DNA of 64,000 nucleotides from Armatimonadota bacterium (GCA_046292385.1 JBKBRF010000002.1:203653-267652); one strand, 5' to 3'. Positions 6,273 to 27,059 are shown, numbered from the stretch's first letter. Translations and numbers: made by a program. Notes: generated by a model not told the origin, from the letters alone.

Positions 6273-6590
6273 GGGACCCTTAAAGGCAAAAGGCTAAAGG
6301 CTAAAGGCAAAAGGCTAAAGTCCGAACCCTCCGTGAGCGGGAGGTCCTGCTCCTACTCTTGCTCCTGCTCGCTGGCGACCGGGTGTTTCCGGCACGTCTT
6401 CGTAGGGATGAGCGATGAGGGATGAAGGCGGGCCTTCCGGATCAGAGTGGGAGAGTGGGAGCAAGGGAGAGTGGGAGAGCCGCTCCCTCGGTGCTGTTAG
6501 CAGATTCCCGGCTCCGAGCCCCACCCGCCGGGGAGCGCAACCTGCAACCTGCCAACTTGCTAACCTGCAACAGACGTCTCCCACTCTCCA
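6259..6590. repeat. Mosaic intergenic repeat block (GGGATGA, AAAGGCT/A, GCTCCT, GGGAGAGT, AACCTGC arrays plus ~60-bp cassette at 6321-6380)
   Basis: Tandem units directly visible. Confidence 0.9.
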
Positions 6591-6695
6591 TTGCCAAAGG
6601 ATTCGGGCACCTTAAAGCTGCGGCGCCGCGCTGACGGGATTCGGCGCGGCACCGCATAATGTACCTTCGAGCCTCACTTCGGCCCAGGACTCACG

Positions 6696-9068
6696 ATGCC
6701 CGCCACGCCGCCCACTCCGGAACCGGTCCTCGATCTCCACGATCCCTCCCTCTACATCAACCGGGAGCTGAGCTGGCTCGAGTTCAACCACCGGGTGCTG
6801 GAGGAGGCGCTGGAGCACGATAAGCCGCTGCTGGAGCGGTTGAAGTTCCTCTCGATCGTCAGCTCCAACCTGGACGAGTTCTTCATGGTCCGCGTCGCCG
6901 GCCTGAAGCGGCAGGTGCGCTCGCAGCGGATGCAGCGCGGTGCGGAAGGCCTGGCCGCGGAGGAGCAGCTCCGCCGTATTGCGGAGCGATGCCACCTGCT
7001 GGTGCGGGAGCAGGACCGCTGCCTGAACGAGGAGATCCTGCCGGGCCTGGCGGAGCACGGGATCGAGATCAAGCAGATCGAGCAGCTCACGCCGGAGCAG
7101 GCACGTTGGGTGAAGGACTACTTCCACCGGCAGGTCTTCCCGGTGCTCACCCCGCTCGGCATCGACCCGAGCCACCCGTTCCCCCAGCTCCGCAACCGCA
7201 GCCTCAACCTGGTGGTGACGCTCCGCAAGGGCCGGCCCGCCCCGGGCGGCTGGACCTCGCCGCTCTACCTGGCGGTGGTGCAGGTGCCGACCGGCATCCC
7301 GCGGCTGGTGCAGCTTCCGGCGGAGAAGGGCGTGCAGTTCGTGCTGCTGGAAGACGTGATCTGCGCCCAGATCTCCGAGCTGTTCCAGGGGCTCACCGTC
7401 ACCGGCTGCTACCCGTTCCGGATCACCCGCGACAGCGACCTCGAATTCGACGAGGAAGAGGCGGAGGACCTGCTGGAGCAGATCGAGCAGGAGCTGCGGA
7501 AGCGGGAGTGGGGCGACACGGTGCGCCTGGAGGTGACGAAGAGCTGCGGCCCGCGCGCGATGGAGGAGCTGCTCCAGGCGCTGGAGATCACGGAGCAGGA
7601 CGTCTACTGCCGCGCCGCGCCGCTGAACCAGACCGACTTCATGGCGCTCTACCGCCTGCCGGACTACGCGCACCTGAAGGACGCGCCGTTCGTGGCGCCG
7701 GAGGTCCGCCCGGTCCAGGGAGAGACCGACCTCTTCGCGGTGCTGCGCGAGCAGGACGTCCTGATCCACCACCCCTACGAGTCGTTCAACACGGTGGTGA
7801 AGTTCGTGGAGCAGGCGGCGGACGATCCGGACGTGCTGGCGATCAAGCAGACGCTCTACCGGACCAGCGGCGACTCCCCCCTGGTGGCGGCGCTCACCCG
7901 CGCGGCGGAGAACGGCAAGCAGGTGACCGCCATCGTGGAGCTGAAGGCGCGCTTCGACGAGGAGAACAACATCGGCTGGGCCCGCCGGCTGGAGCGCTCC
8001 GGCGTCCACGTGGTCTACGGCCTGATGGGCCTCAAGATCCACTGCAAGCTGCTCCTGGTGGTGCGCCGCGAGCCGGGGGAGGACCGTCTCCGGCGCTACG
8101 TGCACCTCGGTACCGGGAACTACAATCCCAGCACGGCGCGGCTCTACACCGATCTCGGCCTGCTCACCAGCTCGCTGCGGATCGGCCAGGACGTCTCCCG
8201 CCTCTTCAACGTGCTGACCGGCTACTCCGAGTTTCCGAAGTGGCGGCGGCTCGCCGTCTCCCCGCTTGGCCTTCGCGAGCGGGTAGTCGAGCTGATCGAG
8301 CGGGAAGCGGAGCACGCGCGCAAGGGCCGGCAGGGGCGCATCATCGCGCAGATGAACAGCCTGGTCGATCCGGAGGCGATCCGCGCCCTCTACCGCGCCT
8401 CCCAGGCCGGCGTCTCGATCGACCTGATCGTCCGCGGCGTCTGCTGCCTCCGCGCGCAGGTGCCGGGGGTCAGCGACAACATCCGGGTCCGCAGCATCGT
8501 CGGGCGAGACCTGGAGCACCGCCGGATCTTCTACTTCCGCAGTGGCGGCGAGGAAGAAGTCTACCTGGCGAGCGCGGACTGGATGCCGCGGAACTTCCTG
8601 CGGCGCGTGGAGGTGATGTTCCCGGTGGAAGACCCGGCGCTGCGGCGGCGAGTGGCGGAGATGCTGCACCTGGCGCTGCGGGACAACGTGAACGCGCGCC
8701 AGCTCTGCGCGGACGGGCGCTACGTGCCGGTGAAGCCGAAACGGGGGCAGAACCGCCTCGACAGCCAGCTCGCTTTCCGCGACCGCGCCCTGCGGGAGCA
8801 CGCGACGCCGCGCGAGCGCGCGCTCGGCACCGACCTGCTGGTACGGGACCTGAGCCACCCGGGCGGGCCGGAACACGTGGCGCTCACCGCGCTCTTCCCG
8901 GTCCGGAACACCCCGCCCGAGTTGCCGCACGAGCCGGTCCATCCGCCCGACCCGGTACCGCCCAACGGCAGCCGGAACGGTCACGCCGGCGTCAACGGCG
9001 CCGGGACACCGTACGTCCCGGAGCAGGAGGCGGAAGAAGCGCTCTACGACGACGCCAGCGGCGTTTGA
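6696..9068 (+). CDS. ppk1: Polyphosphate kinase 1
   Basis: INRELSWLEFNHRVL, SNLDEFFMVRVAGL, IKQTLYRTSGDSP, ELKARFDEENN, GLKIHCK, SADWMPRN motifs. Confidence 0.97.
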   Translation: MPATPPTPEPVLDLHDPSLYINRELSWLEFNHRVLEEALEHDKPLLERLKFLSIVSSNLDEFFMVRVAGLKRQVRSQRMQRGAEGLAAEEQLRRIAERCHLLVREQDRCLNEEILPGLAEHGIEIKQIEQLTPEQARWVKDYFHRQVFPVLTPLGIDPSHPFPQLRNRSLNLVVTLRKGRPAPGGWTSPLYLAVVQVPTGIPRLVQLPAEKGVQFVLLEDVICAQISELFQGLTVTGCYPFRITRDSDLEFDEEEAEDLLEQIEQELRKREWGDTVRLEVTKSCGPRAMEELLQALEITEQDVYCRAAPLNQTDFMALYRLPDYAHLKDAPFVAPEVRPVQGETDLFAVLREQDVLIHHPYESFNTVVKFVEQAADDPDVLAIKQTLYRTSGDSPLVAALTRAAENGKQVTAIVELKARFDEENNIGWARRLERSGVHVVYGLMGLKIHCKLLLVVRREPGEDRLRRYVHLGTGNYNPSTARLYTDLGLLTSSLRIGQDVSRLFNVLTGYSEFPKWRRLAVSPLGLRERVVELIEREAEHARKGRQGRIIAQMNSLVDPEAIRALYRASQAGVSIDLIVRGVCCLRAQVPGVSDNIRVRSIVGRDLEHRRIFYFRSGGEEEVYLASADWMPRNFLRRVEVMFPVEDPALRRRVAEMLHLALRDNVNARQLCADGRYVPVKPKRGQNRLDSQLAFRDRALREHATPRERALGTDLLVRDLSHPGGPEHVALTALFPVRNTPPELPHEPVHPPDPVPPNGSRNGHAGVNGAGTPYVPEQEAEEALYDDASGV

Positions 9069-9078
9069 CCTGTTTCCA

Positions 9079-9146
9079 GTTGGCAGGTTAGCAGGTTTCA
9101 GGTTGTGCCTCCGTAGGCGGGTCCGAAACCTGCAAACCTGCTAACC
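9079..9146. repeat. Inverted AACCTGC-family arrays forming a hairpin between convergent genes (possible terminator role)
   Basis: gttggcaggttagcaggtttcaggtt ... aaacctgcaaacctgctaacc. Confidence 0.85.
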
Positions 9147-10241
9147 CGGCTCCCCTTCGAGAATCAGGTCCGCGACGCGGTTGCCGATCTCGACGGTCGG
9201 CAGGTGGCCGCCGAGGTCGGGGCCGAGCAGCTTCCCCGCCGCGAGGCCCGACTCGACGGCGCGGTGGACCCGCCGGCCCGCTTTCCGGAGCGGCTCGTCG
9301 TCGTGGCGCTCGCCCAGCCAGTCGAGGAGCATCGCGGCGCTCAGGATCGCGGCGAGCGGGTTGGCGAGGCCCTGCCCGGCAATGTCCGGCGCGGTGCCGT
9401 GAGTCGGCTGGAAGACGGCGTGGCGGTCGCCCAGATCCGCGGACGGCGCGAGGCCGAGCCCGCCCGCCAGGGCGGGACCGAGATCGGAGAGGATGTCGCC
9501 GAACATGTTCTCGGTGACGAGGACGTCGAACTGCTCCGGCTGGCGGACCAGCTTCATGGCGCAGGCGTCGACGTATTCGTGCCGCGCCTCCAGGTCCGGG
9601 TAGCCGGCGGCGACCTCGTCGAAGACCTGCCGGAAGAAGGCGGAGGAGCGGAAGACGTTCGCCTTGTCGACGCAGGTCACGCGCCCCGGCCTGCCGCGTT
9701 CCCGGGCGCGCCGGCGGGCCCACTCGAAGGCGGCGCGGCAGACCCGCTCTGTCCCCTTGCGGGTGATTACCTGCTGGTCGGTTGCCACCTCATCCCGCAG
9801 CACCACGCCGCCGCCGAGGGAGGCGAAGAGCCCTTCGGTGCTCTCCCGCACCACGACGAAGTCGACCTCCTCCGGCCGCTTTTGCGCCAGCACGGCGGGC
9901 ACGCCCGGATACCAGCGCACGGGGCGGATGCCGGCGTAGAGGTCGAGCCGGAACCGCAGCTCGATCTGCGGCACCATCTCGGTCCCGTCCGGCCAGCGGA
10001 CGTCCGGCAGCCCCATCGCGCCGAGAAAGACCGCGTCGACCTCCCGGCAGCGGGAGAGGGTCGCCTCCGGCAGCGGCGCGCCGTTCTCCAGGTACTCCCC
10101 CGCGCCGGCGGGCAGCGCCTCCATCTCCAGCTGGAAGCCGCCGACCGCCTGCTCGGCGGCGCGCAGGGCGCGCACCCCCTCCGCGGTCACCTCCGGCCCG
10201 ATCCCGTCTCCCGGCAGCACGGCGATCTGGTAAGTCCGCAT
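9141..10241 (-). CDS. Isocitrate/isopropylmalate/tartrate dehydrogenase family protein
   Basis: [52 protein letters not shown]. Confidence 0.92.
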
Positions 10242-10509
10242 GGCCTCTACCCCCTGCGGGGAGGTTGCGCGGTCGGCGCCATCATCCCTGCGGTGAAGGA
10301 GCCGCCCAGCCGACGCTGCCTTTGACACAGAAGGACGCTGTGAATGCACAGAAGGAACACAGACTTGGGACTGGAATGGCCTTCGGCCGGATGCCAATCA
10401 CAGTGCTCGATTCGCGGTCGATGCGTGGCCCGGCACCTGTTTAGCACGAGATTCTGCTCTGAAAATGCCCCGCGACGGCGTAGGACGATAGGTTGGCGCT
10501 GCGGCGCGG

Positions 10510-10611
10510 CCTAACCCCCCAAACTCCCTTCCCTGCGAGGGAAGGGGGAGTCAGCTTGCCTAACATCCATAGCTCCCCTCTCCTCGCAGGAGAGGGGTCG
10601 GGGGGTGAGGC
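10510..10611. repeat. REP-like palindromic element (cccttccc..gggaaggg / cccctctcc..ggagagggg..gggggtgagg); relatives at ~36796-36896 and 41169-41207
   Basis: Two hairpins with outer inverted repeats, and dispersed similar copies. Confidence 0.75.
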
Positions 10612-11023
10612 CGCGTGAGAAGTAGCACTCACTCTGTTTTCATCCACCCCGGGTGCGCAGAGCGGCAGCGGCAACTCTGTGTCGAAGATCCAGGACCGAA
10701 ACGAAGGACGGAGGCGCGGGTCAACCAAAGATTCTCGACGTCTTCGAAAACTCGCAAAATAGTTGGAACCCGGGCGGGCAACCACGGGTCTGGGGCCTGA
10801 CTCACTCTCTATCTCGCGCCGGAAACGGAGTGCCGGATCGGGTACACTCGGTACCAGGCGGGCACACTCCCCGTGCGGTGCGGCGGAGCTGAGTCGTTCC
10901 GCACCCTATCCGCCCGCCTTCGCGAGGGACACCACCCGGCGTCACTCGCCGGGCGCGACGGGTAGGATCATGTTGGACTTCTCCCTTCCCCTGACGGGGT
11001 CAATTGAAAGGAGTCAGGCAGCC

Positions 11024-13678
11024 ATGAAACGCCTCGGTTGCCTGGTGATACTGGCTGGACTGCTCTTCGGGGCGCGTCCGGCCGCCGCGGATCCGTATGC
11101 CAGCGCCCGCCTGAGCGACGCGCGCGGAAACGTCTCCGTACGCGGCGCCGAAGAGACCGAGATCACCTACGTGGAGCGCAACGCCGTGCTCCGCGAGGGG
11201 GATACGCTCTGGACCGACCGCAGCGGAAACGCCGAGATCGAGCTGGAGAGCGGCACCTGGGTGCGCCTCTCCGAGGACACGAAGCTGGAGCTCCAGCGCC
11301 TGCCTCCCAGCACGGAGCTGCGGGTCTGGACCGGCTCGGTCTACGTGGACGTTTCCGACCGCGCCCTCACCGCCACCCGGCTGATTACGCCGGTGGGCGA
11401 CGTGGACGTGGAGCCGGAGAGCGTGGTGCGCATCGACCTGAGCCGCGACGAGAGCGCCCGCGTGAGCGTGCTACACGGCCGCGCCCGCGTGGCGCCGGTG
11501 GACGGCTCTCCCGTCGGCCTGCAGACCGGCGAGCGGACCTACCTGGAGTGGGGCCGCGGGGTGGAGCGCCCGTCGCCGTTCAGCCGGGATGAGCTGGACG
11601 GCTTCGACCGCTACCACCGGGAGCGAGTTGACTACTACATCGACCGGCCCGTGCCGCGCGAGCTGGAGCGCGACATCCTGGGCGCGCGGGACCTGAACGA
11701 CTACGGCACCTGGGTGGTGGTGGACCACGTCCGCTACTACCGGCCCACCTGCCCGCCGGACTGGCGCCCCTACTCCACTGGCTACTGGAGCTACGTGCCC
11801 AGCTTCGGCTACTCGTGGGTCGACTACTCCCCGTGGGGCTACGCCACCAGCCACTACGGCCGCTGGCGCTACATGCCGTCCCACGGCTGGCTCTGGGCGC
11901 CCGGTTACGTGTGGGGACCCTCGTACGTCTACTGGTCCAACTACGGCAGCTATTGCGGCTGGGCGCCGCTGGACCCGTGGGGACGCCCCGCCTACTACGG
12001 TCCGGGCAACTTCACGTCGTTCAACTTCATCATTGACTTCCGCAGCTGGACCTTCTGCCCGCGGGACCGGTTCTACTACGGTCGCCACCACCGCAGCTTC
12101 GCGGGCCACGGCGGCCACGGCGGACGCGGCGGACGGTTCCTCTTCGGCGGTCACGAGATCCGGAACAACCCGACTGACTTCCACCTGGTACGGGACTTCT
12201 CCCGGGAGATCGGCGTCCCGCGCGACGGCGGGCGCGGCCTCCTGGTGGGCCACAACGGCCTGCGGGCGCGAGACAGCGTCCTGCGGCTGGAGAACGGCCT
12301 GCCCGCCGGGCGGCTGAAGCAGATCGAGAACCGGTTCAAGGTGCCGGGCACGCGCGACCGGGATCACGCCCGCCGCGACAGCGGCCTGGAGAACCTGCTC
12401 CGGAACCCGGACGCCCGCATCGATGACAACCGCATCCTGAAGGGCCCCGAGGCGCTGAAGCGGCTCGGACGGTCGAACCCGAACGAGGGCGGCGAGCTTC
12501 GGAACGAGCGGCCCACCTCGCCGGTGCGGAACGGCGCCGGCCGCGGGAATGACCGCCCCGGCTCTCCGCTGGGACGTGGTGAGGACCGCCGGCCGAGCGC
12601 AGACCGTCCGGGCAATGACCGGCCCAACGCAGACCGGCCGACCCCGCGCCAGGATGGTCCGCTGGGCAACCCGGGCCGCGGAAACGACGAGCCGCACAAC
12701 GGCGAGCCGAACCGCACCCCCGACCCGGCTCGAAAGCCCGACCCGGCGCAGAAGCCCGACCCGGCCCGGCGGCCGGAGCCCTCGCGCCGGCCGGAGCCGC
12801 GCGACTCCGACGGGCGCAGCGCTCCGAACCCGTTCGAGCGGCGGCAGCAGCACGAGCAGCGCCAACCGGACCGCCAGCCCGAGCGTCAACCGGACCGACA
12901 GCCGGACCGGCGCGAGAGCGACCGGCGGCGGGAGCGCAGCGCCTTCGAGCCGCGCACCCCGGCGCCCGCCCTCGGAAACCCGGGCGCAAGCCCGTCGCCG
13001 GGAGCCGGCTCCCGGGACGACCGCTTCCGCCGAGGCAGCGGCTCGGGCCTGGGAGACCGGAATGACCGACCGTCGCCCGGCACCTCTCCGGCCTCTCCGC
13101 TGCGACCGGACGCCGGCCGGCAGCCGGATGCGCCGCGGTCGTCGTACCGCGACTTCCCCTCGCGCAGCGGCGGCTCCAGCGGCGGCGTAGACCGGAGCTC
13201 GGGCTTCCGCCGGGGCGAGCCGAGCCCGCCTCGGGGCGGAGACAGCCGCTCCGTGACGCCGGGCCCCGGGAGCGCGCCCTCCGGCGGCAGCTACCGGGAC
13301 TTCCGGTCGCCGTCCACGGCGCCCCGGTCGCTCGGCCCGTCCGGCGGATCGTCCAGCTCGCCGTACACCCGGCCGGGGGGCGGCAGCACCCCGTTCGGAG
13401 CGGGACGGAGCCCGAGCCCCAGCCCGTCCGGCGGCAGCTATTCCCCCCGGACCGGCGGCAGCTCGCCGTCCCGCGGGAGCGAGCGCGGCAGCTATCGCTC
13501 GCCGCTGGGGAGCCGCGGCAGCCCGTTCCCGTCTCGCGGCGGCGTGAGCGCGCCCCGCAGCCTCGGACCGTCGCGGTCGCCGTCCTTCGGCAGCCGCGGC
13601 TCCGCGAGTCCGAGCCGGTCCAACGGGGGAAGCTCCTCCGGCGGCCGGTCCGGCGGCTTCTCGCGCCGCGGCCGGTAA
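11024..13678 (+). CDS. FecR-domain / DUF6600-like secreted protein with long disordered R/S/G/P-rich tail
   Basis: AAGGAG RBS, signal peptide, FecR-like EGDTLWT...AEIELE..GTWVRL, aromatic motif WRPYSTGYW..YSWVDYSPWGYATSHYGRW..GWLWAPG, low-complexity C-terminus. Confidence 0.85.
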   Translation: MKRLGCLVILAGLLFGARPAAADPYASARLSDARGNVSVRGAEETEITYVERNAVLREGDTLWTDRSGNAEIELESGTWVRLSEDTKLELQRLPPSTELRVWTGSVYVDVSDRALTATRLITPVGDVDVEPESVVRIDLSRDESARVSVLHGRARVAPVDGSPVGLQTGERTYLEWGRGVERPSPFSRDELDGFDRYHRERVDYYIDRPVPRELERDILGARDLNDYGTWVVVDHVRYYRPTCPPDWRPYSTGYWSYVPSFGYSWVDYSPWGYATSHYGRWRYMPSHGWLWAPGYVWGPSYVYWSNYGSYCGWAPLDPWGRPAYYGPGNFTSFNFIIDFRSWTFCPRDRFYYGRHHRSFAGHGGHGGRGGRFLFGGHEIRNNPTDFHLVRDFSREIGVPRDGGRGLLVGHNGLRARDSVLRLENGLPAGRLKQIENRFKVPGTRDRDHARRDSGLENLLRNPDARIDDNRILKGPEALKRLGRSNPNEGGELRNERPTSPVRNGAGRGNDRPGSPLGRGEDRRPSADRPGNDRPNADRPTPRQDGPLGNPGRGNDEPHNGEPNRTPDPARKPDPAQKPDPARRPEPSRRPEPRDSDGRSAPNPFERRQQHEQRQPDRQPERQPDRQPDRRESDRRRERSAFEPRTPAPALGNPGASPSPGAGSRDDRFRRGSGSGLGDRNDRPSPGTSPASPLRPDAGRQPDAPRSSYRDFPSRSGGSSGGVDRSSGFRRGEPSPPRGGDSRSVTPGPGSAPSGGSYRDFRSPSTAPRSLGPSGGSSSSPYTRPGGGSTPFGAGRSPSPSPSGGSYSPRTGGSSPSRGSERGSYRSPLGSRGSPFPSRGGVSAPRSLGPSRSPSFGSRGSASPSRSNGGSSSGGRSGGFSRRGR

Positions 13679-13711
13679 GCTCACGCGGCCCAGGCCGCGG
13701 CGGTGACACGG

Positions 13712-13749
13712 GATGGACGTTTGCCCCGGCTCCGGGGTAAACGTCCATC
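13712..13749. promoter_or_regulatory. Near-perfect 18-bp palindrome immediately upstream of miaA
   Basis: gatggacgtttgccccgg-ct-ccggggtaaacgtccatc. Confidence 0.6.
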
Positions 13750-13750
13750 T

Positions 13751-14683
13751 GTGTCTTACCCCGCCCCTACCCGTCCCCCGCTGGCGATCCTGACCGGACC
13801 CACCGCCGTCGGCAAGACCGAAGTCTCGCTCGACGTGGCGGAGCGCCTCGGCACGGAGATCCTCTCCGCCGACTCGATGGCGGTCTACCGCCGCATGGAC
13901 GCCGCCACCGCCAAGCCCTCCGCCGCGGCGCGGGCGCGCGTGCCGCATCACCTGATCGACCTCGTCGACCCGACCGAGCCGTTCACCGTCGCCGACTACC
14001 GCGAAGCGGCGATCCCGATCGTGGAGCGTCTCTACGCGGAGGGGAAGCGGCCGCTCTTCGTCGGCGGGACCCGCCTCTACCTCCGCGCGCTCACGGCGCC
14101 GTTCGCCACGGGGCCGGAGCCCGACCCCGAGCTTCGGGCGCGTCTCAAGGAGCAATCGACCGAGGCGCTGCACGCGGAGCTGGCGCGGGTCGATCCCGCT
14201 ACGGCGGCCTGGGTGCATCCCGCGGACCGGAAGCGGATCGTCCGCGCGCTGGAGGTCTGGCACAAGACCGGCCGGCCGATCTCCGAGGTCCAGGCGGAGA
14301 GCCGCGAGGAGGGCGGTCTCTACCCGGCGACCTGGGTGGCGCTGGTCCGGGACCGGGAGGAGCTCTACCAGCGGGTCGATTCCCGCGTGGACGAGATGAT
14401 CCGGGACGGGCTGGTGGAGGAAGTCCAGGGCTTCCTCCACGAGGGCCTCGGCCCGGATACCCCCGCCATGGCCGGCCACGGCTACAAGGAGATCATGCGG
14501 GCGCTCCTGGGCGAGTACTCCCTCGACGAAGGAATCCGGCTGCTGAAACGAAACACCCGCCGCTACGTGAAGTACCAGCTCATGTGGCTGCGGGGCATGC
14601 CGGAAGTCCGCTACGTCCGCGCCGACCAGCCGCACGAGCGGGTGGTGGAGGAGGTGCTTAGAGGGATGAACGATGAGGGATGA
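13751..14683 (+). CDS. miaA: tRNA dimethylallyltransferase
   Basis: ILTGPTAVGKT, EILSADSM.VYR.MD..TAKP, PHHLID, VGGTRLY, RIVRALEV. Start uncertain (13703 or 13751). Confidence 0.93.
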   Translation: MSYPAPTRPPLAILTGPTAVGKTEVSLDVAERLGTEILSADSMAVYRRMDAATAKPSAAARARVPHHLIDLVDPTEPFTVADYREAAIPIVERLYAEGKRPLFVGGTRLYLRALTAPFATGPEPDPELRARLKEQSTEALHAELARVDPATAAWVHPADRKRIVRALEVWHKTGRPISEVQAESREEGGLYPATWVALVRDREELYQRVDSRVDEMIRDGLVEEVQGFLHEGLGPDTPAMAGHGYKEIMRALLGEYSLDEGIRLLKRNTRRYVKYQLMWLRGMPEVRYVRADQPHERVVEEVLRGMNDEG

Positions 14684-15633: not shown

Positions 15634-15727
15634 CGGCGCTCGCACCGAGGCCGGGAACCACGGAGCCGCTTCTACCGTCAGCAATGAAGAGCGCCCTGGC
15701 GGCGCGAAACCTGGGAGGGAGCTGCGG

Positions 15728-18658: not shown

Positions 18659-18700
18659 AAAAAGAGCGGGAGGCCCCCCGAAAGGAAGTCCTCCCGCTCT
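18659..18700 (-). terminator. Rho-independent terminator for the 18714-19184 gene
   Basis: agagcgggagg...cctcccgctct stem followed by a T-run on the minus strand. Confidence 0.75.
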
Positions 18701-18713
18701 CCATTTCGAAGCA

Positions 18714-19184: not shown

Positions 19185-19308
19185 CTGTGTTCCTCCTGTC
19201 CCCTTCCGGGGTTACTTTCTCCCAACCGGCCCTTTGTCCCCGTCTACGGGGCTTTCTGTAACGTGAAGGTCCGACAGAAGGAACCGGAACAGGTGTAAGA
19301 AGGGAAGT

Positions 19309-19474
19309 CAGGGGGATAGGGGGAGATGAGGGGATAAATCAGGTCCAGCCGATCACGGTGATTCCGCTGGAATCCGCTCAGCCCGGCGAAACGGCCGCGT
19401 TGACGCAGCAAGTCGACGCCAGGCGAGCCAGAACAGTGCAGATCCCCTTATCCCCCTCCATCTCCCTCATCTCC
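19309..19474. repeat. Inverted GGGAGATGA-type arrays
   Basis: gggggatagggggagatgaggggata ... ttatccccctccatctccctcatctcc. Confidence 0.75.
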
Positions 19475-19509
19475 TTTCTTACACTTGCAGCTGACAGCAC
19501 TCCGCACTC

Positions 19510-19980
<471 letters not shown>

Positions 19981-20068
19981 CACTGGACCTCCCGCACTCG
20001 CACGTGACCTCTGCTGAGAACATGCTACAGTACACGCGGAAAGTCCGTTTTGTAGCCGGGAGGGGAAG

Positions 20069-20695
20069 ATGCTGCGCCGCGCGTTCATACTGTCTGCCGC
20101 CGCCCTGGCGCTGGGGACCGCCGCGTCGGCCCAGCTTCAGGAGATCTATTCGCAGTACGTGCGCGTGCTGAACCCGCAGGGCGACTTTGCCGCGAAGCTG
20201 ATCCGGCTGGAGCCCGGAGGCGGGGAGGGCTGGCGCGAGGTGCGGGACGAGCGGAACGGGTACCGGCTCCAGGTACCGGCCGGCGCGAAGGTCGATACCG
20301 CCGCCAGCGGCTCCCGGGTGCTGCTGGTGACGCTGGAGGAGAGCCAGGAGGCCCCCTCGCCCACGTTCCGCATCGACCTCTTCCAGCCCGCTCCCGGCGA
20401 GCCGACGAAGGTCGACGCCGAATACGCCCGGGCCTACGCGGAGCAGTATTCGGAGACCGCCTTCGAGGGGAAGCTGCAGGTGACCGACAGCGGGCTGCTC
20501 CAGGTGAAAAAGCTGCCGCTCGCCATGGTCGGCGGCGTCCGACCCCAGGGCGCCGCGCAGGCCTACCGCCTGCAGTGCGCGCACCTGAGCAAGAAGCAGC
20601 AGCTCTTCCTCACCGTCGACTGCTCCGCGGCCGATTGGCCGGGCCTGAGCGAGACGGTCGGCCGGATGCTCCTGACCTTCGAAGTGGGCAAGTAG
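20069..20695 (+). CDS. Secreted hypothetical protein (possibly PsbP-like fold)
   Basis: Signal peptide, RBS, GYRLQVP and terminal MLLTFEV. Confidence 0.65.
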
Positions 20696-20736
20696 GCGCC
20701 GGCAGGCGACAGCCGTCGCCGGGTGACTAAGAACAA

Positions 20737-20768
20737 CGAAGCGGGACCCATCCCGGGGTCCCGCTTCG
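20737..20768. terminator. Hairpin between convergent genes
   Basis: cgaagcgggacc...ggtcccgcttcg. Confidence 0.65.
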
Positions 20769-20791
20769 CAATTCCGAAGGCTGCCGGCACG

Positions 20792-21856
20792 CTAGAGCGA
20801 GCGAGTGCGGCGGCGGTCCCGCGAGGGGTCGGCGGAAGGCGGCTGCGGCACGGTGCGGCTCCGCTCTTCCAGCAGCATCCGCAGCATGTCGAGTCCCTCT
20901 TCCTTCGCCGGGACCGACTCGGCTTCCGCGGGGGTGGTGGAGCCGGCCATCCGGGCCATGCCGGCCATGCCGGTGTCGGTCCGCGTCTCCATCGACATCC
21001 CGGCCGTGCCCGGCTTCATCATGCTTGCCATCGTCGCCTCGCGCGTGGCCGGCATCATGTTCATCACCGGCTCACCCGGTACGGCGGGAACCGTGGGCGC
21101 CGTGGGGACCGTCGACGGGAGCCGCGGCTCGGCCGCGCCTACCTCCGGCTTCGGGGCGCCCGGCACTTCCGGGCGGGGCGCCGAAACCGCGGCCTCCGTC
21201 GGCTTCTCCGTCCGCCGCTTGAGGGTCGGCTGCGGGCGCCGGTTGGCAGGCGCGGGCGCCGCCTGCTGCTCCGCGACCGGCGCGGCCACCGGCTCCCTCA
21301 CCGGCTCGACCTCGCTGCGGGTGGACACCTCCGGGAGCGGCGCGGGACGGGGCGCCCGCGCGATCCGGATGGGACCATGGGCAGTGTGCGCCTCGGCCCC
21401 GCGCTCCTCGTGCCGCACCGGCGGCTCCGAAGCGTGCTGCTCCGGGCGCTCCGGCTCGGTGCGGGCGATGACCGGCTCCCGCTCGACCGGCGTCGAGGAC
21501 GGGATGATCCCCGCGCGGCTCTGCATCACGCCGAGGAGCAGGAGCGCGGAAGCGCCCGCGAAGGCGGTGAAGGCCCACGGGCCGTAGGGAAGGCTGTGAC
21601 GGCGCGGGACCGCGGCCGGGACCGGAGCCAGCTTGGCGCCGGAGATACCGGCCATGATGCGGGCGTGCAGACCGGTTGGGAGGTCCTCCTCCGGGATCAG
21701 CGACGCCAGGCGGGACAACCCGCGCAACTCTCGCAGCTCACCGGCGCACTGCTCGCAGCGAGTGACGTGCTGCTCGACCGATTGCTCCTGCGTCGCGCTG
21801 AGCTCGCCATCCACGTAGGCGGATAGCTGCTTTCGAACCCTGCCACACCACATCAT
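20792..21856 (-). CDS. zf-HC2 (ZAS) anti-sigma factor with TM helix and disordered extracytoplasmic tail
   Basis: C...LSAYVDGELS...HVTRCEQC (HxxxCxxC), one TM segment, AGGAG RBS. Confidence 0.88.
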   Translation of the reverse strand: MMWCGRVRKQLSAYVDGELSATQEQSVEQHVTRCEQCAGELRELRGLSRLASLIPEEDLPTGLHARIMAGISGAKLAPVPAAVPRRHSLPYGPWAFTAFAGASALLLLGVMQSRAGIIPSSTPVEREPVIARTEPERPEQHASEPPVRHEERGAEAHTAHGPIRIARAPRPAPLPEVSTRSEVEPVREPVAAPVAEQQAAPAPANRRPQPTLKRRTEKPTEAAVSAPRPEVPGAPKPEVGAAEPRLPSTVPTAPTVPAVPGEPVMNMMPATREATMASMMKPGTAGMSMETRTDTGMAGMARMAGSTTPAEAESVPAKEEGLDMLRMLLEERSRTVPQPPSADPSRDRRRTRSL

Positions 21857-22196
21857 GGCGACTCCTAACCCCTCGCCCGGCTCGCCGGTCCTTCCCAGCG
21901 AATACGCTCCGTACGACAATTACGGAGCGGACCGGTTACAACAATCTCGCAACAGCTCTGCGTTCCTGCTTCGTTCCTTCGGCCGCACGCTCGCGCCGGC
22001 GATACGACCATTCCCGGTTTCCCAGGATACGACACCCACCCGCAGAGCTGGTTGCGCCTATCGACCTTAAGACTGTCTGGGTGACTTCACTACGCCTGCC
22101 CGGCACCCCGCCGCGGCTTTCCTCAAAGACGCGCGGCGCTCCGGATTGTTCCCCTATTTGCCTCGGGACTGGTGTGACACACGCCACAGCGGGTCT

Positions 22197-22363
22197 CGGA
22201 CAGAGACAGAGGGACTGAGAGACGGAGAGACAGAGAGACGGAGCGCGGCAGGGGTGGCGGGGATGGCGCCCCGGAGGGGCGCGAGACGATAGCCGGGGGT
22301 CAGCGCAGCGCAGCCCCCGGGCTCACGCCGACCCAATACATCCGCCCTGGAGGGGCGGCGGAG
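22197..22363. repeat. GAGACGGA octamer array followed by REP-like element (gccccggaggggcg...gccctggaggggcg)
   Basis: Tandem octamers and duplicated palindromic units. Confidence 0.75.
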
Positions 22364-22505
22364 CTACGCGCGCTCCTTAGCGAAATCGGTGCGGAGTCAA
22401 CTCCGCGGGTTGGTTCCGCCGGAGGCCAACCTCCGGCGATCCGGGGCTTCACCGTCTCGGACGGGCGGCGGAAACCCCGCTTCTCGAGAGCGCGCCGGAG
22501 CCCGG

Positions 22506-22627
22506 GGTCGCCAGCGAGCAGGAGCAGGAGTAAGAGCAGGAGCAAGAACTGCCGTACACGGAGGGCTCTCCACCTCCGGTGCGCGGGGGTTCGGAACCTG
22601 CAACCTGCAACCTGCAAACCTGAACCT
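22506..22627 (-). repeat. AACCTGC array plus ~60-bp dispersed cassette (copy 3)
   Basis: Reverse complement matches 6321-6380. Confidence 0.88.
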
Positions 22628-24221
22628 ATCTGCGCGGCGCTGGCTTCTTCGGGGCGGCGGGGGCGGGGGCGGCCCACGTGAGGGGCGGCAGGGTAGCGGT
22701 CTTGCCGGCGGCGACGGTGACCGTCACCTCCACGTTCTGCCAGGCGCCCGGCTTCGGCAGCTCCACGCCGGTGTACTTGCGGCGGACCCGGTAGACGCCC
22801 GGCTGCAGGTCTTCCAGCAGCACCTTCCCGTCGAAGTCGACCGGGAGGTCGATCCACCGCACCGCGCTCCAGCCGCCGGGGGTCTGGCGGGAGAGGCCCA
22901 GGCTGACCGTCCCGCTGCGGGGGCTGCGGGTGCGGATGCGGACCTGGCTGGAGACGGCGCCGCCGCCCGCCTGGAAGTAGGGGTTCTGCTGCGCGGCCGC
23001 GCCTTCCGGCATCGGCGCCGCGTTGCGCGCCACGAACCGCTCCGGCACCGGCAGCGGCACGTCGGCGAGGCGGAAGCGGAGTAGCCGCACCGGCTCCTCC
23101 ATCTCCGCAATCTCCCAGGTGAGCTTCGCCGGCTCTTCCTCGCAGCCGGGGAAGATCCAGGTGCCGTCGGAAACGGTCACGTCCGCGCCGCGGTAGCTGC
23201 TGCCGCCGCGGAGGAGCGAGCCGGGATACCGGCGGCCGGACTTCCCGACCAGCTCCGGCACGATCTGCCCGCCCTTCGCCCCGCCGTAGCGGCGGTCGCT
23301 CGGCGCGAAGAGACGCACGCGCACGCTCGGCCCGCTCGGCAGCTCGCCGCCGGAGACCCGCGGGCCGGGGAGCTCCTCCGGCCCCTCGTCCTGCGGCTTC
23401 GGGATCACCAGGTAGCGCGACACGAGGACAATGAGGTCCCGCGCCTCCGCACGGCCCACCGGGCCGGTCAGCGGGAGCGGCAGCTCCGCCTGCAGCGTGC
23501 GCCGGCGCCGGTAGCGCATCAGGTCGCCCTCGATCGAGACCAGCTTACGGGCTTCCGGGTGGGGCCCCTCCAGCGTGACACTGCCGCTCCACTCGTCCGG
23601 GTAGAGGCCGCTGTTGGAGCTGCCGAAGTACCACGGCGTCTCGCCTTTGGAGGTGGCGACGTGGCCCTGGTCGTCGGTCACTACCAGGTTCTGCACTCCC
23701 GCGATCGAGTCGCCCTCGTCCTCCCCCAGCTCCGCGGTGAGCGCCAGGTTCAGGCTGCGGTTCGCCTGCGGCGGCGGGGCGCCCGGCTCGAAGCTGGCCC
23801 AGCGGCTGTCGTACAGGTTTAGGGAGCGGACGTAGAGCCGCACCCCACCCCGCTCGAAGAGCCCCACCGGCTCTCGCGGCTCCACGCCGATCGGCGCCGG
23901 CAGCAGCCGGTACCCCTCGCCCGCCCGGGTGGGACGGAGCTGGAACCTGTCGCAGAGCTGGCGCAGCGCTCGGGAGAAGGAGACGTCCTCCCAGTCGAAG
24001 CTGCCCTGCGGCGGCGCCGCGCCGATCGGCCGGAGCGCTCCGATCTCCACCGGCACGCCGGAGGCCTCGGAGAGGCGCGCGGCGGCCTGCCCGGCATTCA
24101 CGTTCTCCAGCTTCAGCGTGACCCGGCTCGGGGCCGCCGCCGCGGCGGAGAGGAGGCATGCGGAGAGAAGCAGCGCGCGGGCGACGAGGGGGAGGCTTCG
24201 GAGGGTGCGTGGCTCGTACAT
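22626..24221 (-). CDS. Secreted hypothetical protein, paralog A (STN-like N-terminus, C-terminal beta-sandwich)
   Basis: Signal peptide; colinear similarity with 24377-26038. Confidence 0.8.
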   Translation of the reverse strand: MYEPRTLRSLPLVARALLLSACLLSAAAAAPSRVTLKLENVNAGQAAARLSEASGVPVEIGALRPIGAAPPQGSFDWEDVSFSRALRQLCDRFQLRPTRAGEGYRLLPAPIGVEPREPVGLFERGGVRLYVRSLNLYDSRWASFEPGAPPPQANRSLNLALTAELGEDEGDSIAGVQNLVVTDDQGHVATSKGETPWYFGSSNSGLYPDEWSGSVTLEGPHPEARKLVSIEGDLMRYRRRRTLQAELPLPLTGPVGRAEARDLIVLVSRYLVIPKPQDEGPEELPGPRVSGGELPSGPSVRVRLFAPSDRRYGGAKGGQIVPELVGKSGRRYPGSLLRGGSSYRGADVTVSDGTWIFPGCEEEPAKLTWEIAEMEEPVRLLRFRLADVPLPVPERFVARNAAPMPEGAAAQQNPYFQAGGGAVSSQVRIRTRSPRSGTVSLGLSRQTPGGWSAVRWIDLPVDFDGKVLLEDLQPGVYRVRRKYTGVELPKPGAWQNVEVTVTVAAGKTATLPPLTWAAPAPAAPKKPAPRR

Positions 24222-24376
24222 CTCGAGTTAGTCTGTCCAGCTACTTCTGGTGAGTTGGAGTGGGCGCAAGGGAGAGAGGGGGAATGGGAGATCCGCGCTC
24301 GTAAGCAGCTTCGCAAGCTCGCCCACTCGCCCTTGCTCCGATTCCGCTACCGCCCATTCAGCGCGGCGGCAGGCTA

Positions 24377-26038
24377 CTACTTCTTCACCGGTCTGGCGCC
24401 GGCCGGCTTCTTCGGGGCGGGACGGGCTGCGGCGGGCTTCTTGGGAGCGGCGGACACGCCGGGCTTCGACCACTCCAGCGGCGGGAGAACCAGCTCTTTC
24501 CCCGGCTCTACCTGGACCACCAGCTCGTCTCCGGTCCACCGGCCGCCGGTCGGCAGCGCCTCCTCGCCCGGGCGGTACGACCGCAGCACGCGGTAGCGTC
24601 CCGGCCGGACTCCGGAGAGCCGCGCGGTGCCGTCTTCCACCGGCACGCTCATCCAGCGCAGCGGTCCCCAGCCTTTTCCGCGCTCCGCCGCCATGCCGAT
24701 CTGCAGCGTGCCGGCAGGCGCCGGACGGCCGGAGAGGCGGACCGGGGAACTCACCGCCACGCCGTCCGGAGAGTGGAGCGGTTTTGCGGCCGGCTGTCGG
24801 TCCGGATCCTCGGCGGGCTGTCGCCCCGGACCCGCGGCGGGCGCCGCGAGCGGCTCCGGCAGCGGGACGTTCGGGATACGGAACGTGAGCAGCGGCACCG
24901 GCTCACTCCGCTCCAGCGTATCCCAGATCAGCTTCGCCGGCCGGTCACCCTCGGCCAGCCGGAAAGAGATGGTCCCCTCTCCGAACTGCCAGTCGCCGTC
25001 CCCACCGCCGCCCCAGGAGTGGCCGCTGGAGGGATACAGCTCGCCGGAGGCGCCGGCGAGGAGGGGGTTCGAGGCCGCCTCCATGAACTCGCTGCGCGGT
25101 CCCGCCGGCGCGAAGACCCGGAGGCGGATCGTTCTTTCGCCGCTCGACGGCCGGCGCCGGATCTGCGGCAGGTCTTCCTCGCCCGGCGGCACCGGGAGCT
25201 CCTCCGGCGAGGGAGGGCCGTAGCCGGAAACCACGACCAGCGTCTCTCCGATCTGCTTCCGCACCGCCTTGCCGCTCTCCGGCAGCTCCAGCTCCACGGT
25301 GGACCGGCGGACGGTGCGGTGGACCAGCAGCTCTCCCTCTACCCAGGTGAGGCGGCGGGCGCGTGGATCGGGGCCGGGCAGCGAGACGCTGCCGCTCCAG
25401 CGGTCCGGAAAGCCGGCTTCGAAGAAGGACGGCGGTGAACGAAACTCTCCCTGGCGGGCCAGGACCTGGCCGGTGTCGTCCCGCGCCACCACGTTCGCCA
25501 GGCCGTAGACCTGGTCCCGGTCCAGCTCCCCCAGCTCCGCGGCGAAGTGCAGGGTCAGGGTGCCGCTGCTGTCCCGGTTCCCGCCGACCCCGGCGAGGTT
25601 CCGGCTGCGGGACTGGTGGATCGCCGTGGAGACCATGTAGAAGCGGACCCCGTCCCGCACCACCAGCCCGAACGGCTTCAGCGGCGGCCCCTCCTCCGCG
25701 AAGCCGCCCGGCATGAGCTGGTAGACCGGCCCGCGCCGCTGGGGCCGCAGCCCGTACCGGGCGCAGAGCTCCCGGAGCGCCCGGTTGAAGGTCGCCGCGC
25801 TCCAATCGAAGCTGGCCCGCTCCGCCAGCGCGCCCTGCGGCATCCCGAGCGGCTGCGCGTAAGCCGGCAGCGTGAGGCGGACGCCGGACGCTTCGGAGAG
25901 CCGGCGGATCGCCTCCGGGGCCGTCGCATTCTCCACCCGGATCCCGAGCCGCGCTGCCTCCGCGGCGGCGGCGCCGACTCCCGCCGCCGGCGCGACGACG
26001 CACCCGAGGACGGAGAGGAGGGTGAGAAAGTGGCGCAT
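24377..26038 (-). CDS. Secreted hypothetical protein, paralog B
   Basis: MRHFLTLLSVLG signal peptide. Shares RLSEASGV, SFDW, DD.G, PD.WSGSV.L.GP.P.AR and PG.YRV.R.Y with paralog A. Confidence 0.8.
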   Translation of the reverse strand: MRHFLTLLSVLGCVVAPAAGVGAAAAEAARLGIRVENATAPEAIRRLSEASGVRLTLPAYAQPLGMPQGALAERASFDWSAATFNRALRELCARYGLRPQRRGPVYQLMPGGFAEEGPPLKPFGLVVRDGVRFYMVSTAIHQSRSRNLAGVGGNRDSSGTLTLHFAAELGELDRDQVYGLANVVARDDTGQVLARQGEFRSPPSFFEAGFPDRWSGSVSLPGPDPRARRLTWVEGELLVHRTVRRSTVELELPESGKAVRKQIGETLVVVSGYGPPSPEELPVPPGEEDLPQIRRRPSSGERTIRLRVFAPAGPRSEFMEAASNPLLAGASGELYPSSGHSWGGGGDGDWQFGEGTISFRLAEGDRPAKLIWDTLERSEPVPLLTFRIPNVPLPEPLAAPAAGPGRQPAEDPDRQPAAKPLHSPDGVAVSSPVRLSGRPAPAGTLQIGMAAERGKGWGPLRWMSVPVEDGTARLSGVRPGRYRVLRSYRPGEEALPTGGRWTGDELVVQVEPGKELVLPPLEWSKPGVSAAPKKPAAARPAPKKPAGARPVKK

Positions 26039-26140
26039 GGTTCTGCTCCCGGTGCGGATTGGAATCTCTGTCCCTTTCCGGGGAGCGACGCAGGACTCCT
26101 GCCCGCACGCGCGGGAACGAGCCTCCGGAGGAGTGGAGCT

Positions 26141-26980
26141 ATGCGGGAGATCATCGACGCCCACGTGCACGTCTGGACCCCGGACACGGAGCGCTACCCG
26201 CTGGCGGCGGGCTACACTCGAGAGAACATGCGGCCCCGGAGCTTCACGCCGGAGGAGCTGTTCGCCCACTGCCGCCCGGAGGGAGTGCGCCGCGTGGTGC
26301 TGATCCAGATGAGCTTCTACGGTTTCGACAACCGCTACATGCTCGACAGCATGCGGCGCTTCCCTGGGGTCTTCTCCGGCGTGGCGGTGATCGACTGGAC
26401 CGCTCCCCGCCCGGACGAGGAGATGGCGCGGCTGGCGAAGGAGGGAGTCCGCGGCTTCCGCATCCGGAGCGGCGACACCCCGGCGCCCGACTGGGCGGAG
26501 ACGGAGCCGCTCGACCGGATGTTCCGCACGGCGGCGGAGCGGCGGCTGGCGATCTGCCCCCTGCTCGGCCCGAACGCCCTCCCCTCGCTCGCGCGGATGT
26601 GCGCGCGCCACCTCAAGACGCCGGTGGTGATCGACCACCTGGCCCGGATCGGCTTCGACGGGGAGATCCGCGAGGCGGACGTCCACGCGCTCTGCCAGAT
26701 GGCCCACTTCCCGGAGGTGCGGGTCAAGGTCTCCGCCTTCTACGCGCTCGGGAAGAAGCGCCCGCCCCACGCGGAACTGGAGCCGGTGATCCGCCGCGTC
26801 CACGAGGCGTTCGGGGCGAAGCGGCTGATGTGGGCGAGCGACTGCCCCTTCGCGGTGCAGGAGGAGCGGTACGTCGACAGCCTGGCGCTGGTCCGCGACC
26901 GCTGCCCCTGGCTGAAGCCGGACGAGCGAGAGTGGCTCCTAAGGCGGACGGCGGAGGATACCTTCTTCCGCCCAGAGTGA
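26141..26980 (+). CDS. Amidohydrolase family protein (amidohydro_2, sugar lactonase-like)
   Basis: IIDAHVHVW, VIDHLAR, VKVSA, RLMWASDCP. Confidence 0.92.
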   Translation: MREIIDAHVHVWTPDTERYPLAAGYTRENMRPRSFTPEELFAHCRPEGVRRVVLIQMSFYGFDNRYMLDSMRRFPGVFSGVAVIDWTAPRPDEEMARLAKEGVRGFRIRSGDTPAPDWAETEPLDRMFRTAAERRLAICPLLGPNALPSLARMCARHLKTPVVIDHLARIGFDGEIREADVHALCQMAHFPEVRVKVSAFYALGKKRPPHAELEPVIRRVHEAFGAKRLMWASDCPFAVQEERYVDSLALVRDRCPWLKPDEREWLLRRTAEDTFFRPE

Positions 26981-27059
26981 GGGATGAGAGAGAAGGATGA
27001 GCGATGAGGGATGAAGGATGAATCCGAACCCTCCATACCCGGCCGTCCTGCTCCTGCTC
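26977..27059 (+). repeat. GGGATGA array plus truncated cassette (copy 4)
   Basis: gggatga..ggatgagcgatgagggatgaaggatgaatccgaaccctcc...tcctgctcctgctc. Confidence 0.85.

Follow-up and report, generated by a model that had tools for sequence, protein, structure and literature searches.

REP, BIME and REPIN elements are extragenic repeats, present in about 100 or more copies, that are enriched at the 3' ends of genes, form mosaics of short modules and are associated with RAYT (Y1) transposases; they carry a GTAG-type head and a stable palindrome and occur as inverted doublets, and in E. coli the BIMEs are reported to bind host proteins. The BOX elements of S. pneumoniae and S. suis are described as intergenic, multicopy repeats of the form boxA-(boxB)n-boxC with terminal inverted repeats, target-site duplications and an RNA stem-loop fold, and in S. 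suis differing end modules are found around one internal module (Croucher et al. 2011, PMC3049150). A third type consists of GGGNATC heptamer arrays, described in Xanthomonas and Nostoc, which abut stop codons and prefer four units, and most such heptamer repeats are reported to be transcribed in Xanthomonas (Rehm et al. 2015, PMC4692102).

The repeat described here was found in a 64-kb window (the whole stretch of 64,000 nucleotides that was analysed) from one uncultured Armatimonadota bacterium with a genome of 7.04 Mb, a GC content of 69% and an assembly that is 98% complete. Read 5' to 3', the element starts with a short heptamer array of fixed length and continues through a CCGAACC joint, a weak small hairpin and 1-7 CT-rich hexamers into a 14-mer (GCTCGCTGGCGACC), behind which a tail extends for about 45 nt. 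The cassette of about 60 bp reported in the preliminary description is real as a sequence, but it is the core of a longer unit of about 110-160 bp (roughly 130), with conservation extending about 45 nt beyond GCTCGCTGGCGACC, and the loop spacing given there as N3 is N2 or N3 depending on the reading. The number of hexamers varies between 0 and 7 per copy (mode 4) and the 14-mer is a near-palindrome, G-n-TCGC-nn-GCGA-n-C, in which 10 of 14 positions read from the sequence lie in dyad symmetry. On balance we favour the view that this is a modular, non-coding BOX/BIME-like dispersed DNA repeat that acts, or formerly acted, at the DNA level.

All four copies reported for the window were present, together with their preceding AAAGGCT, GGGATGA, GCAGGTT and GGGATGA arrays, and a profile made from 103 genome copies placed them at 6300-6411 (+), 14665-14774 (+), 22478-22572 (-) and, for the head only, 27003-27059 (+). 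In the first copy an AAAGGCT-type array of about 5.7 units (6281-6320) begins 9 nt past the stop codon of a gene ending at 6272 and is followed on the same plus strand by the head (6321-6346), where the small hairpin CCTCCG-TGAG-CGGGAGG comes after the TCCGAACC joint, by a CT-rich run of GCTCCT, ACTCTT and GCTCTT units (6347-6366), by the 14-mer with its near-palindromic core TCGC-TG-GCGA, which is the best-kept part (6367-6380), and by a tail (6381-6411) that contains the conserved island TCCGGCACG and continues into a second GGGATGA array. The second copy occupies 14661-14774 on the plus strand (tail end approximate), with a GGGATGA-type array (14661-14683) in which miaA has its stop codon (gene end 14683), a head (14684-14710), hexamers (14711-14730) and the 14-mer (14731-14744), after which the tail runs to about 14774. 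The third copy lies on the minus strand at 22478-22627 (tail end at about 22478) and its GCAGGTT array (22627-22595) is found directly past the stop codon of the gene ending at 22626; here an additional hairpin of about 25 nt with the CCGAACC word separates the array from a degenerate head, which is followed by the hexamers, the 14-mer (22519-22506) and the tail. The fourth copy (26978-27059, plus strand) is truncated and lacks the 14-mer and the tail, having only a GGGATGA-type array that overlaps the stop codon of an Amidohydro_2 gene ending at 26980 (26978-27021) and a head with two hexamers (27023-27059). Each of the four copies is thus located behind the stop codon of a same-strand gene, as had been claimed (gene ends 6272, 14683, 22626 and 26980), and full Pfam matches were obtained for two of the four upstream genes, IPPT for miaA at the second copy and Amidohydro_2 at the fourth.

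Exact matches to GCTCGCTGGCGACC numbered 73 in the whole genome as compared with 0.43 expected from base composition. A profile search of the genome gave 164 matches, of which 146 had E<1e-5 and 108 had E<1e-10; the repeat is present in about 100 to 150 copies in this genome. With a crude codon-usage gene call, 145 of the 146 matches at E<1e-5 were intergenic, and apart from 7 adjacent pairs among these 146 the copies were singletons. They are diverged from each other, with most pairs being 70-90% identical and a single pair reaching 96%. Among 136 placed copies, 40 were located in convergent spacers (compared to 708 of 4755 for all spacers) and 19 in divergent spacers. The preliminary description had presented the cassette as always sense-oriented, which is correct for 4/4 copies in the window and does not extend to the genome, where co-directional spacers contained 41 sense and 40 antisense copies; stricter sets gave the same picture (40/37, 27/25 and 25/25 sense/antisense). 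The occurrence of four sense copies behind stop codons within the window is a sampling effect. There was also no bias toward either replication strand as judged from local GC skew (the locally G-rich strand carries 70/128 copies, p = 0.33, the proxy being weak on contigs) or toward the local majority of gene strands (66/128).

The genome's heptamer arrays were located by motif-based scans, given that a strict array finder undercounts degenerate arrays. For copies with a same-strand upstream gene the stop codon was located inside the array in 21/73 cases and within 10 nt of it in 14/73, with most of the others within 60 nt. Heptamer arrays in the genome started at a median of 6-34 nt past a same-strand stop codon whether the cassette was present or absent, and the CCGAACC joint was also found behind arrays lacking the cassette. 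Abutment of stop codons is therefore a property of the heptamer arrays and not of the cassette, which is found near stop codons because the array module sits there. The heads of 77 type-1 copies were 34 of the GGGATGA type, 34 of the AAAGGCT type and 9 of other types, the unit number being four in 22/34 GGGATGA-type heads and five in 21/34 AAAGGCT-type heads. No association was seen between head type and any of 49 variable columns of the body (lowest p = 0.02, with a Bonferroni limit of 0.001). On paper (GGGATGA)4 fits the G3-N4 pattern of a putative G-quadruplex.

The same genome contains a sister family, represented by 55 further profile matches that share the head, have different hexamers and a different tail and lack the 14-mer of the cassette. 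Like the cassette, its members have an array, a CCGAACC joint, a small hairpin and a CT-rich hexamer run in this order, and the word following the hexamers (ACTCG-A-TGGCG) resembles that of the cassette (GCTCG-C-TGGCG). They differ in the hexamer units (ACTCCT/TTCTCG) and in having a longer, other tail that ends in a CTCCCACTC-type array, and their heads are almost only GGGATGA (28/35).

Outside this genome, an 18-mer scan of genome contigs returned single matches only, in unrelated high-GC taxa, which we take to be chance matches. Two longer patterns searched against metagenome contigs and one pattern searched against viral contigs gave 0 matches, and blastn against plasmids and phages returned nothing. 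A blastn search with a single copy over 40 relatives identified just a GGGATGA array, in genome G010. A profile search extended to 150 further Armatimonadota genomes returned eight matches, all weak (20.8-28.4 bits); of the two inspected, one is a coding Ala-Pro repeat (G010) and the other, in G005, an array of ACTCTT/GCTCTT hexamers that lacks the 14-mer. As judged by these sequence searches, the repeat is found in this genome only within all collections searched.

Several hallmarks of mobile elements were examined. Within 500 nt, 3/71 copies had an inverted counterpart of their 5' array (control mean 1.25), 12/100 copies had any inverted array within 400 nt, and a repeat search of three window copies showed no end-to-end inverted repeat, in support of the earlier statement that there are no obvious terminal inverted repeats; the idea that the cassette is cargo between inverted arrays was rejected on the inverted-partner counts. 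The longest word shared by the two flanks averaged 5.19 (n = 68) against a value of 5.0 (sd 0.11) when pairings were shuffled, giving no indication of a target-site duplication in a test that is weak given the fuzzy boundaries. Among the 11 transposase-like loci in the genome (5 Y1, 2 IS110 and 4 DDE_Tnp_1) one was located within 1 kb of a copy, about 0.5 being expected, and no mobilising enzyme was linked to the repeat. None of the five Y1_Tnp (HUH) loci was within 5 kb of a copy (the nearest were at 5.5-19.7 kb, or no copy was present on the contig), and these loci are flanked by other hairpin repeats of their own. The 98%-complete assembly yielded neither an RVT_1 reverse transcriptase nor TnpB (Cas12f1-like_TNB). 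The earlier hint of RNA-mediated spread was not supported, and given that the copies are mostly 70-90% identical, recent movement is not shown. Integron attC sites are sense-oriented behind cassette genes, and an attC reading was dropped because the orientation here is random and the copies are dispersed.

A role in RNA, as a 3'-UTR module (terminator, stabiliser or processing site) in the sense transcript or through spread by an RNA intermediate, was suggested by the four sense copies just behind stop codons in the window, by arrays that abut or hold the same-strand stop codon (21/73 inside, 14/73 within 10 nt) and by the transcription of most such heptamer repeats in Xanthomonas (Rehm et al. 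2015, PMC4692102). The stop-codon evidence is general to heptamer arrays, and the strand bias that had been read as a hint of RNA function disappeared genome-wide (41 sense, 40 antisense), this being the random orientation that the preliminary description had itself named as counting against its proposal. Nor did folding support the idea, no conserved fold or covariation being found. With 40 copies, RNAalifold returned -5.49 kcal/mol and a covariation term of -0.19. Measured against shuffles, hairpin 1 had a mean z-score of -1.0, hairpin 2 one of +0.1 and the whole element one of -0.3. Folding energies were equal on both strands (sense -36.5, antisense -36.3), and a fold of window positions 6260-6500 was no better than shuffles (z = -0.58), the sense/antisense energy gap there being compositional. 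In hairpin 1 the 3' arm has degraded with no compensatory changes, as seen at pair 28-45 (CG 54, CA 16, CC 13 and CT 7). A long stem that pairs the hexamer run with purine arrays (GAGTGGGAG...) appeared in some MFE folds and was rejected, a partner being present in just 13/100 copies. An Rfam search of the cassette matched no family, a consensus scan found no sigma-70 promoter or intrinsic terminator at the cassettes, and sigma-54 and ECF promoter likenesses noted by eye had the wrong spacing. ARAGORN detected no tRNA anywhere in the window, and an origin of GGTTCGAAT-like words from a tRNA or T-loop was likewise rejected. Over window positions 6000-25999, two DNA runs and two RNA runs yielded short Logan contigs only, none of those listed spanning a cassette, and the raised summed depth in DNA bins with cassettes reflects cross-mapping of the repeat. 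Near-identical DNA is present in soil and root samples. With no conserved structure, covariation or folding asymmetry, no terminator-like site and no RVT_1, we regard an RNA module as very improbable. Of the earlier alternatives, an undescribed non-autonomous element or a 3'-UTR RNA module, what holds is a dispersed, non-coding, multicopy repeat with no Rfam match and no occurrence outside this genome in the collections searched, and the RNA module is not supported. A coding function, either as a short leucine-rich peptide (CTG CTC ... GCT GGC GAC, read as L(n)-A-G-D) or as the terminus of a neighbouring gene, appeared hardly credible: the hexamers have a period divisible by three, poly-Leu and then AGD can be read in one frame and a Shine-Dalgarno-like GGGAGG is present in the 3' arm of hairpin 1, but no ATG, GTG or TTG start is kept in the poly-Leu frame, the GGGATGA array supplies an in-frame TGA immediately upstream, the tail spacing shifts by non-multiples of 3, copies with ACTCTT units have TAG in one reverse frame, and 145/146 copies lie outside called genes.

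A dispersed DNA repeat would account for these observations as follows. The repeat would have been copied into gene-free spacers in either orientation, by past mobility or by recombinational spread, and copies might persist mainly where they are least harmful, at the 3' ends of genes and above all in convergent spacers. The hexamer number would drift by slippage, and two main interchangeable heptamer heads are attached to one body at the common CCGAACC joint, with the 14-mer being a putative protein recognition site. A possible though rather unlikely alternative is that the 14-bp near-palindrome, perhaps with the hexamers, is a host-recruited DNA site, putatively bound by a dimeric DNA-binding protein (nucleoid, topology or regulatory) and selected at about 100 gene ends, with the rest of the cassette as carrier. 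The 14-mer is by far the best-kept part (97.7% consensus identity, compared to the head at 88%, the hexamers at 89% and the tail at 59-69%), and this high conservation next to a poorly conserved tail could mean selection for a host function rather than a selfish repeat; the 10/14 dyad positions and the 41/40 split would also fit a site that functions in either orientation. However, the figure of 97.7% is inflated because both the seeds and the profile were anchored on the 14-mer, 55 head-sharing copies lack the 14-mer, and no candidate protein and no occurrence outside the genome were found. More speculative, and in our estimate improbable, is a combinatorial spacer grammar in which arrays of fixed length (four G3-type or five AAAGGCT units) would cap gene ends and be joined at CCGAACC to exchangeable bodies, a dedicated protein would dock on the 14-mer and hexamers irrespective of strand, and the modules would be shuffled by site-specific recombination at the joint. 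If true, the spacers would hold an organised intergenic system of a new kind rather than junk repeats. Two things that were earlier merged are now separate, the known tendency of arrays to lie at stop codons and a lineage-restricted modular repeat body. Annotation of Armatimonadota gains one defined repeat family and its profile, for a repeat that fills spacers and breaks assemblies. Should the 14-mer be a protein site or CCGAACC a recombination point, they would provide a route to the assembly of mosaic intergenic repeats, BIME and BOX among them.

Compared with known systems, the 5' array alone resembles the G-rich heptamer repeats of Rehm et al. [quoted passage not shown] That study describes its repeats as arrays standing alone or in inverted pairs, rather than as heading a conserved cassette of 100 nt, and AAAGGCT makes up half of the present cassette heads, lacking a G3 tract and having five units as the mode. 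The architecture, and the architecture only, is analogous to that described for BOX (PMC3049150), with conserved end modules around variable tandem units (head-(hexamer)n-14-mer/tail), and the end-module exchange of S. suis parallels the interchangeable heads and the sister family. As BOX is described there, the cassette differs in its tandem unit (6 nt compared to about 45 nt), in its host (69% GC and another phylum) and in lacking a terminal inverted repeat, target-site duplication or fold in the tests run, and no sequence relation is apparent from the Rfam search, in which no family matched. A MITE would have terminal inverted repeats, which the cassette lacks, and a target-site duplication, of which the weak test gave no sign; an IS200/IS605-derived PATE or a retroelement fits poorly with the lack of TnpB, RVT_1 and skew-strand bias and with the unlinked Y1 loci. 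The cassette also differs from a structured RNA family in that its orientation is not fixed to the transcript and no conserved structure with covariation is present. In comparison with REP/BIME/REPIN elements, it has no GTAG-type head or stable palindrome, occurs as singletons and has no Y1 gene within 5 kb, but like them it is extragenic, high-copy, enriched at the 3' ends of genes and mosaic with arrays and other modules, in a genome that encodes Y1-type proteins with flanking hairpin repeats of their own.

The motif was present at all four positions where the preliminary description had placed it, 6321-6380 (+), 14685-14744 (+), 22506-22568 (-) and 27023-27059 (+), and the sequence read there gave one order of modules: a heptamer array, the joint (T/G)CCGAACC, a small hairpin (CCTCCG-loop-CGGGAGG, hairpin 1), CT-rich hexamers (GCTCCT, GCTCTT and ACTCTT) and GCTCGCTGGCGACC. 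We refer to the side of the array, joint and hairpin 1 as the head and to the hexamers, the 14-mer that follows them and the tail as the body. The variation of the preceding array was confirmed with Tandem Repeats Finder, which placed AAAGGCT units at 6281-6320 (copy 1), GGGATGA-type units at 14661-14683 (copy 2) and 26978-27021 (copy 4) and GCAGGTT units at 22595-22627 on the minus strand (copy 3). Copy 3 has a second CCGAACC hairpin between its array and a degenerate head, and copy 4 ends after two hexamers. In all-against-all BLAST comparisons of 600-nt windows and in anchored listings, similarity between copies starts in the heptamer array and extends about 25-45 nt beyond the 14-mer, across a conserved island TCCGGC(A/G)CG and as far as approximately ...AGCTCG. 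The stretch directly 3' of copy 1 (6405-6479) contains a further GGGATGA array, then a GGCGGGCCTTCCGG hairpin and a AGAGTGGG octamer array.

The assembly (7.04 Mb in 91 contigs, 69% GC, 98% complete by marker genes, with the window on contig 2) contains 73 exact occurrences of the 14-mer, compared to 0.43 predicted from base composition. An nhmmer profile made from 103 seeds gave 164 matches in the genome at E<1e-3 (83 on the plus and 81 on the minus strand), 146 at E<1e-5 and 108 at E<1e-10, and within the window it recovered the four known copies and nothing else. Most pairs of copies were 70-90% identical and just one pair reached 96%; longer shared flanks were seen in only a few pairs. Copies occur singly, and the 146 matches include 7 adjacent pairs.

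The head was typed in the 77 type-1 copies in which it was measurable. GGGATGA-type heads were found in 34 of these, their unit number peaking sharply at four (22/34), AAAGGCT-type heads in another 34, with a mode of five units (21/34), and other or absent heads in 9. Head type was not associated with any of 49 variable body columns (the smallest p value was 0.02, against a Bonferroni limit of 0.001), the alignment showed strong mutual information only within the array, and the number of hexamers per copy ranged from 0 to 7 with a mode of 4. By regular expressions, the CCGAACC joint followed 92 of 134 GGGATGA arrays, only 26 of which ran on into the 14-mer. A sister family of 55 profile matches (e.g. 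contig 19, 59646-59721 (-); contig 5, 204159-204234 (-); contig 62, 25975-26050 (+)) shares the GGGATGA array, the CCGAACC joint and the small hairpin with the cassette but has ACTCCT and TTCTCG hexamers and a different, longer tail that ends in a CTCCCACTC-type array. Given the two main head types on the same body, the common joint and the sister family, the proposed interchangeability of the array is thus real and reflects a set of modules united at a common joint.

Gene context was examined with a crude gene caller (codon log-odds from 1121 long high-GC3 ORFs followed by greedy selection), which gave 5591 genes and a coding fraction of 83%. Among the genes next to the window copies, full-length Pfam matches were obtained for two of the four upstream genes (miaA/IPPT and Amidohydro_2) and no Pfam match for the other two or for two of the four downstream genes. 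The decisive comparison of orientation was made in co-directional spacers, the one type in which both neighbours of a copy run the same way relative to it. Copies at E<1e-5 in these spacers were divided into 41 sense and 40 antisense, and stricter gene scores or restriction to copies bearing the 14-mer gave 40/37, 27/25 and 25/25. Neither a bias to the locally G-rich strand (70/128 copies, p = 0.33) nor one to the local majority gene strand (66/128) was found. Orientation is therefore random genome-wide, the earlier claim that the cassette is always sense-oriented fails together with the RNA-type strand bias read from it, and the four sense copies out of four in the window are a sampling effect. 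Convergent spacers held 40 of the 136 placed copies, although they make up just 708 of all 4755 spacers, and divergent spacers held 19.

Where the upstream neighbour was on the same strand the array began at the gene end. Among these 73 cases, the array contained the stop codon in 21 and followed it by no more than 10 nt in 14, and in the remaining 38 the distance was mostly up to 60 nt. When the head faced a gene start the median gap was about 130 nt, and the tail side was never close to a gene end (medians about 130-280 nt). GGGATGA, AAAGGCT, GCAGGTT and AGGGTKT arrays throughout the genome, with or without a cassette, began a median of 6-34 nt 3' of a same-strand stop codon and were about equally frequent in sense and antisense. 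The location just downstream of a stop codon thus stands for same-strand upstream neighbours, but it comes from the heptamer arrays as such and not from the cassette. Two further array loci in the window, a long CCTTTAG array (reverse of AAAGGCT, about 12.6 units) at 39578-39673 and an inverted pair of AGGGTTT and CTAAACC arrays about 30 nt apart at 42531-42623 (both Tandem Repeats Finder), exemplify array-pair hairpins with the common CCGAACC/GGTTCGG joint.

No conserved fold was found. The RNAalifold energy for 40 full copies was -5.49 kcal/mol (covariation term -0.19), and in hairpin 1 a 3-bp core was kept while the 3' arm decayed without compensation (pair 29-44: CG 81, CA 11; pair 28-45: CG 54, CA 16, CC 13, CT 7). 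Mean z-scores against shuffles were -1.0 for hairpin 1 (n = 74), +0.1 for hairpin 2 (n = 100) and -0.3 for the whole cassette (n = 74), and per-copy folding energies were equal in sense (-36.5) and antisense (-36.3). In copy 1 the MFE fold pairs the hexamers with the downstream purine array, many G-U pairs joining them to the octamers, but this stem was rejected, as the fold did not do better than shuffles (z = -0.58) and a partner of this kind was present in just 13/100 copies. Neither promoters nor terminators were detected at the cassettes by consensus scans, ARAGORN gave no tRNA in the window, and Rfam no match at gathering thresholds. At E<=1, three sub-threshold microRNA-family matches lay away from the cassettes, at 9080-9144 and 10505-10615; the latter (minus strand, about 100 nt, two precursor families at 34.6 and 32.9 bits) suggest that the spacer separating the genes at 9141-10241 and 11024-13678 contains a long hairpin.

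The window copies lack terminal inverted repeats, as had been noted. An inverted partner of the 5' array was found in 3/71 copies (control 1.25), any inverted array within 400 nt in only 12/100, and no target-site duplication was detected. Five Y1_Tnp, two IS110-type and four DDE_Tnp_1 loci were identified in the genome, and no RVT_1 or TnpB-type domain. Only one of the 11 transposase-like loci had a copy at a distance of 1 kb or less, against about 0.5 expected. The Y1 (HUH) genes are bordered by other hairpin repeats: GCGAGGGGTT..AACCCCTCGC on contig 51 (25920-26261), GGAGTGCGG..GCTTGC.. palindromes on contigs 83 (9901-10122) and 40 (62344-62622) and ..GTCAAC.. hairpins on contig 5 (163128-163307). 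The ..GTCAAC.. hairpins recur 3' of many cassette copies.

By blastn the cassette was absent from 40 relatives, with just a GGGATGA array in one (G010). Its profile gave eight weak matches (20.8-28.4 bits) in 150 other genomes of the phylum; the two inspected were a coding Ala-Pro repeat in G010 and, in G005, which belongs to the same family but to a different genus, a hexamer array lacking the 14-mer. This array, at 1465-1535 of its locus (contig 9), consists of about ten ACTCTT/GCTCTT units, as found in the cassette. Metagenome contigs (two patterns), viral contigs, and plasmids and phages gave no matches. The cassette was thus not found outside this genome in anything searched, in collections that may omit records of the source genome or a very near one. 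The 31-mer words of window 13000-22999 were present at 0.94 in hot-spring DNA runs and at 0.20-0.55 in soil and root metagenomes from other studies; two runs aligned to this stretch yielded only short, little-diverged pieces, none of them a contig across it.

Among other explanations, the main one, which we regard as rather unlikely, is that the repeat has been recruited by the host as a putative protein-binding site centred on the 14-mer. This segment is 97.7% identical to the consensus and near-palindromic (core TCGC-TG-GCGA, 10/14 positions symmetric), which hints at a protein site. The other segments were at 89% (last three hexamers), 88% (joint with the hairpin 1 5' arm, and the TCCGGCACG island), 83% (hairpin 1 3' arm) and 59-69% (rest of the tail), but this contrast is inflated because the copies were found with the 14-mer itself. 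An RNA module, as first proposed from the sense copies in the window, is a weak explanation and very improbable given the even orientation and the lack of a conserved fold. A coding function is weaker still and scarcely credible, as 145 of the 146 copies at E<1e-5 were outside the genes called by the crude caller.

Heptamer repeats located at stop codons are a published class, to which the 5' array belongs. Rehm et al. 2015 (PMC4692102) describe GGGNATC arrays in Xanthomonas and Nostoc on the coding strand within 50 bp of the stop codon, sometimes overlapping it, with four units preferred, inverted pairs, and fewer arrays than expected between divergent ORFs. A different intergenic heptamer, TAACTGA, is located before start codons according to MacGregor 2015 (PMC4679880). 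In architecture the nearest known element is BOX, boxA-(boxB)n-boxC, and in S. suis there are families in which one internal module is enclosed by differing end modules (Croucher et al. 2011, PMC3049150); BOX has terminal inverted repeats, target-site duplications and a fold, and none of the three was found in the cassette. REP/BIME elements resemble the cassette in location and mosaicism and differ from it in having palindromes, doublets and a linked RAYT. Given the BOX-like architecture, the REP/BIME-like location and mosaicism and the class of the array, we therefore lean towards regarding the cassette as a new, lineage-restricted variant among modular intergenic DNA repeats.
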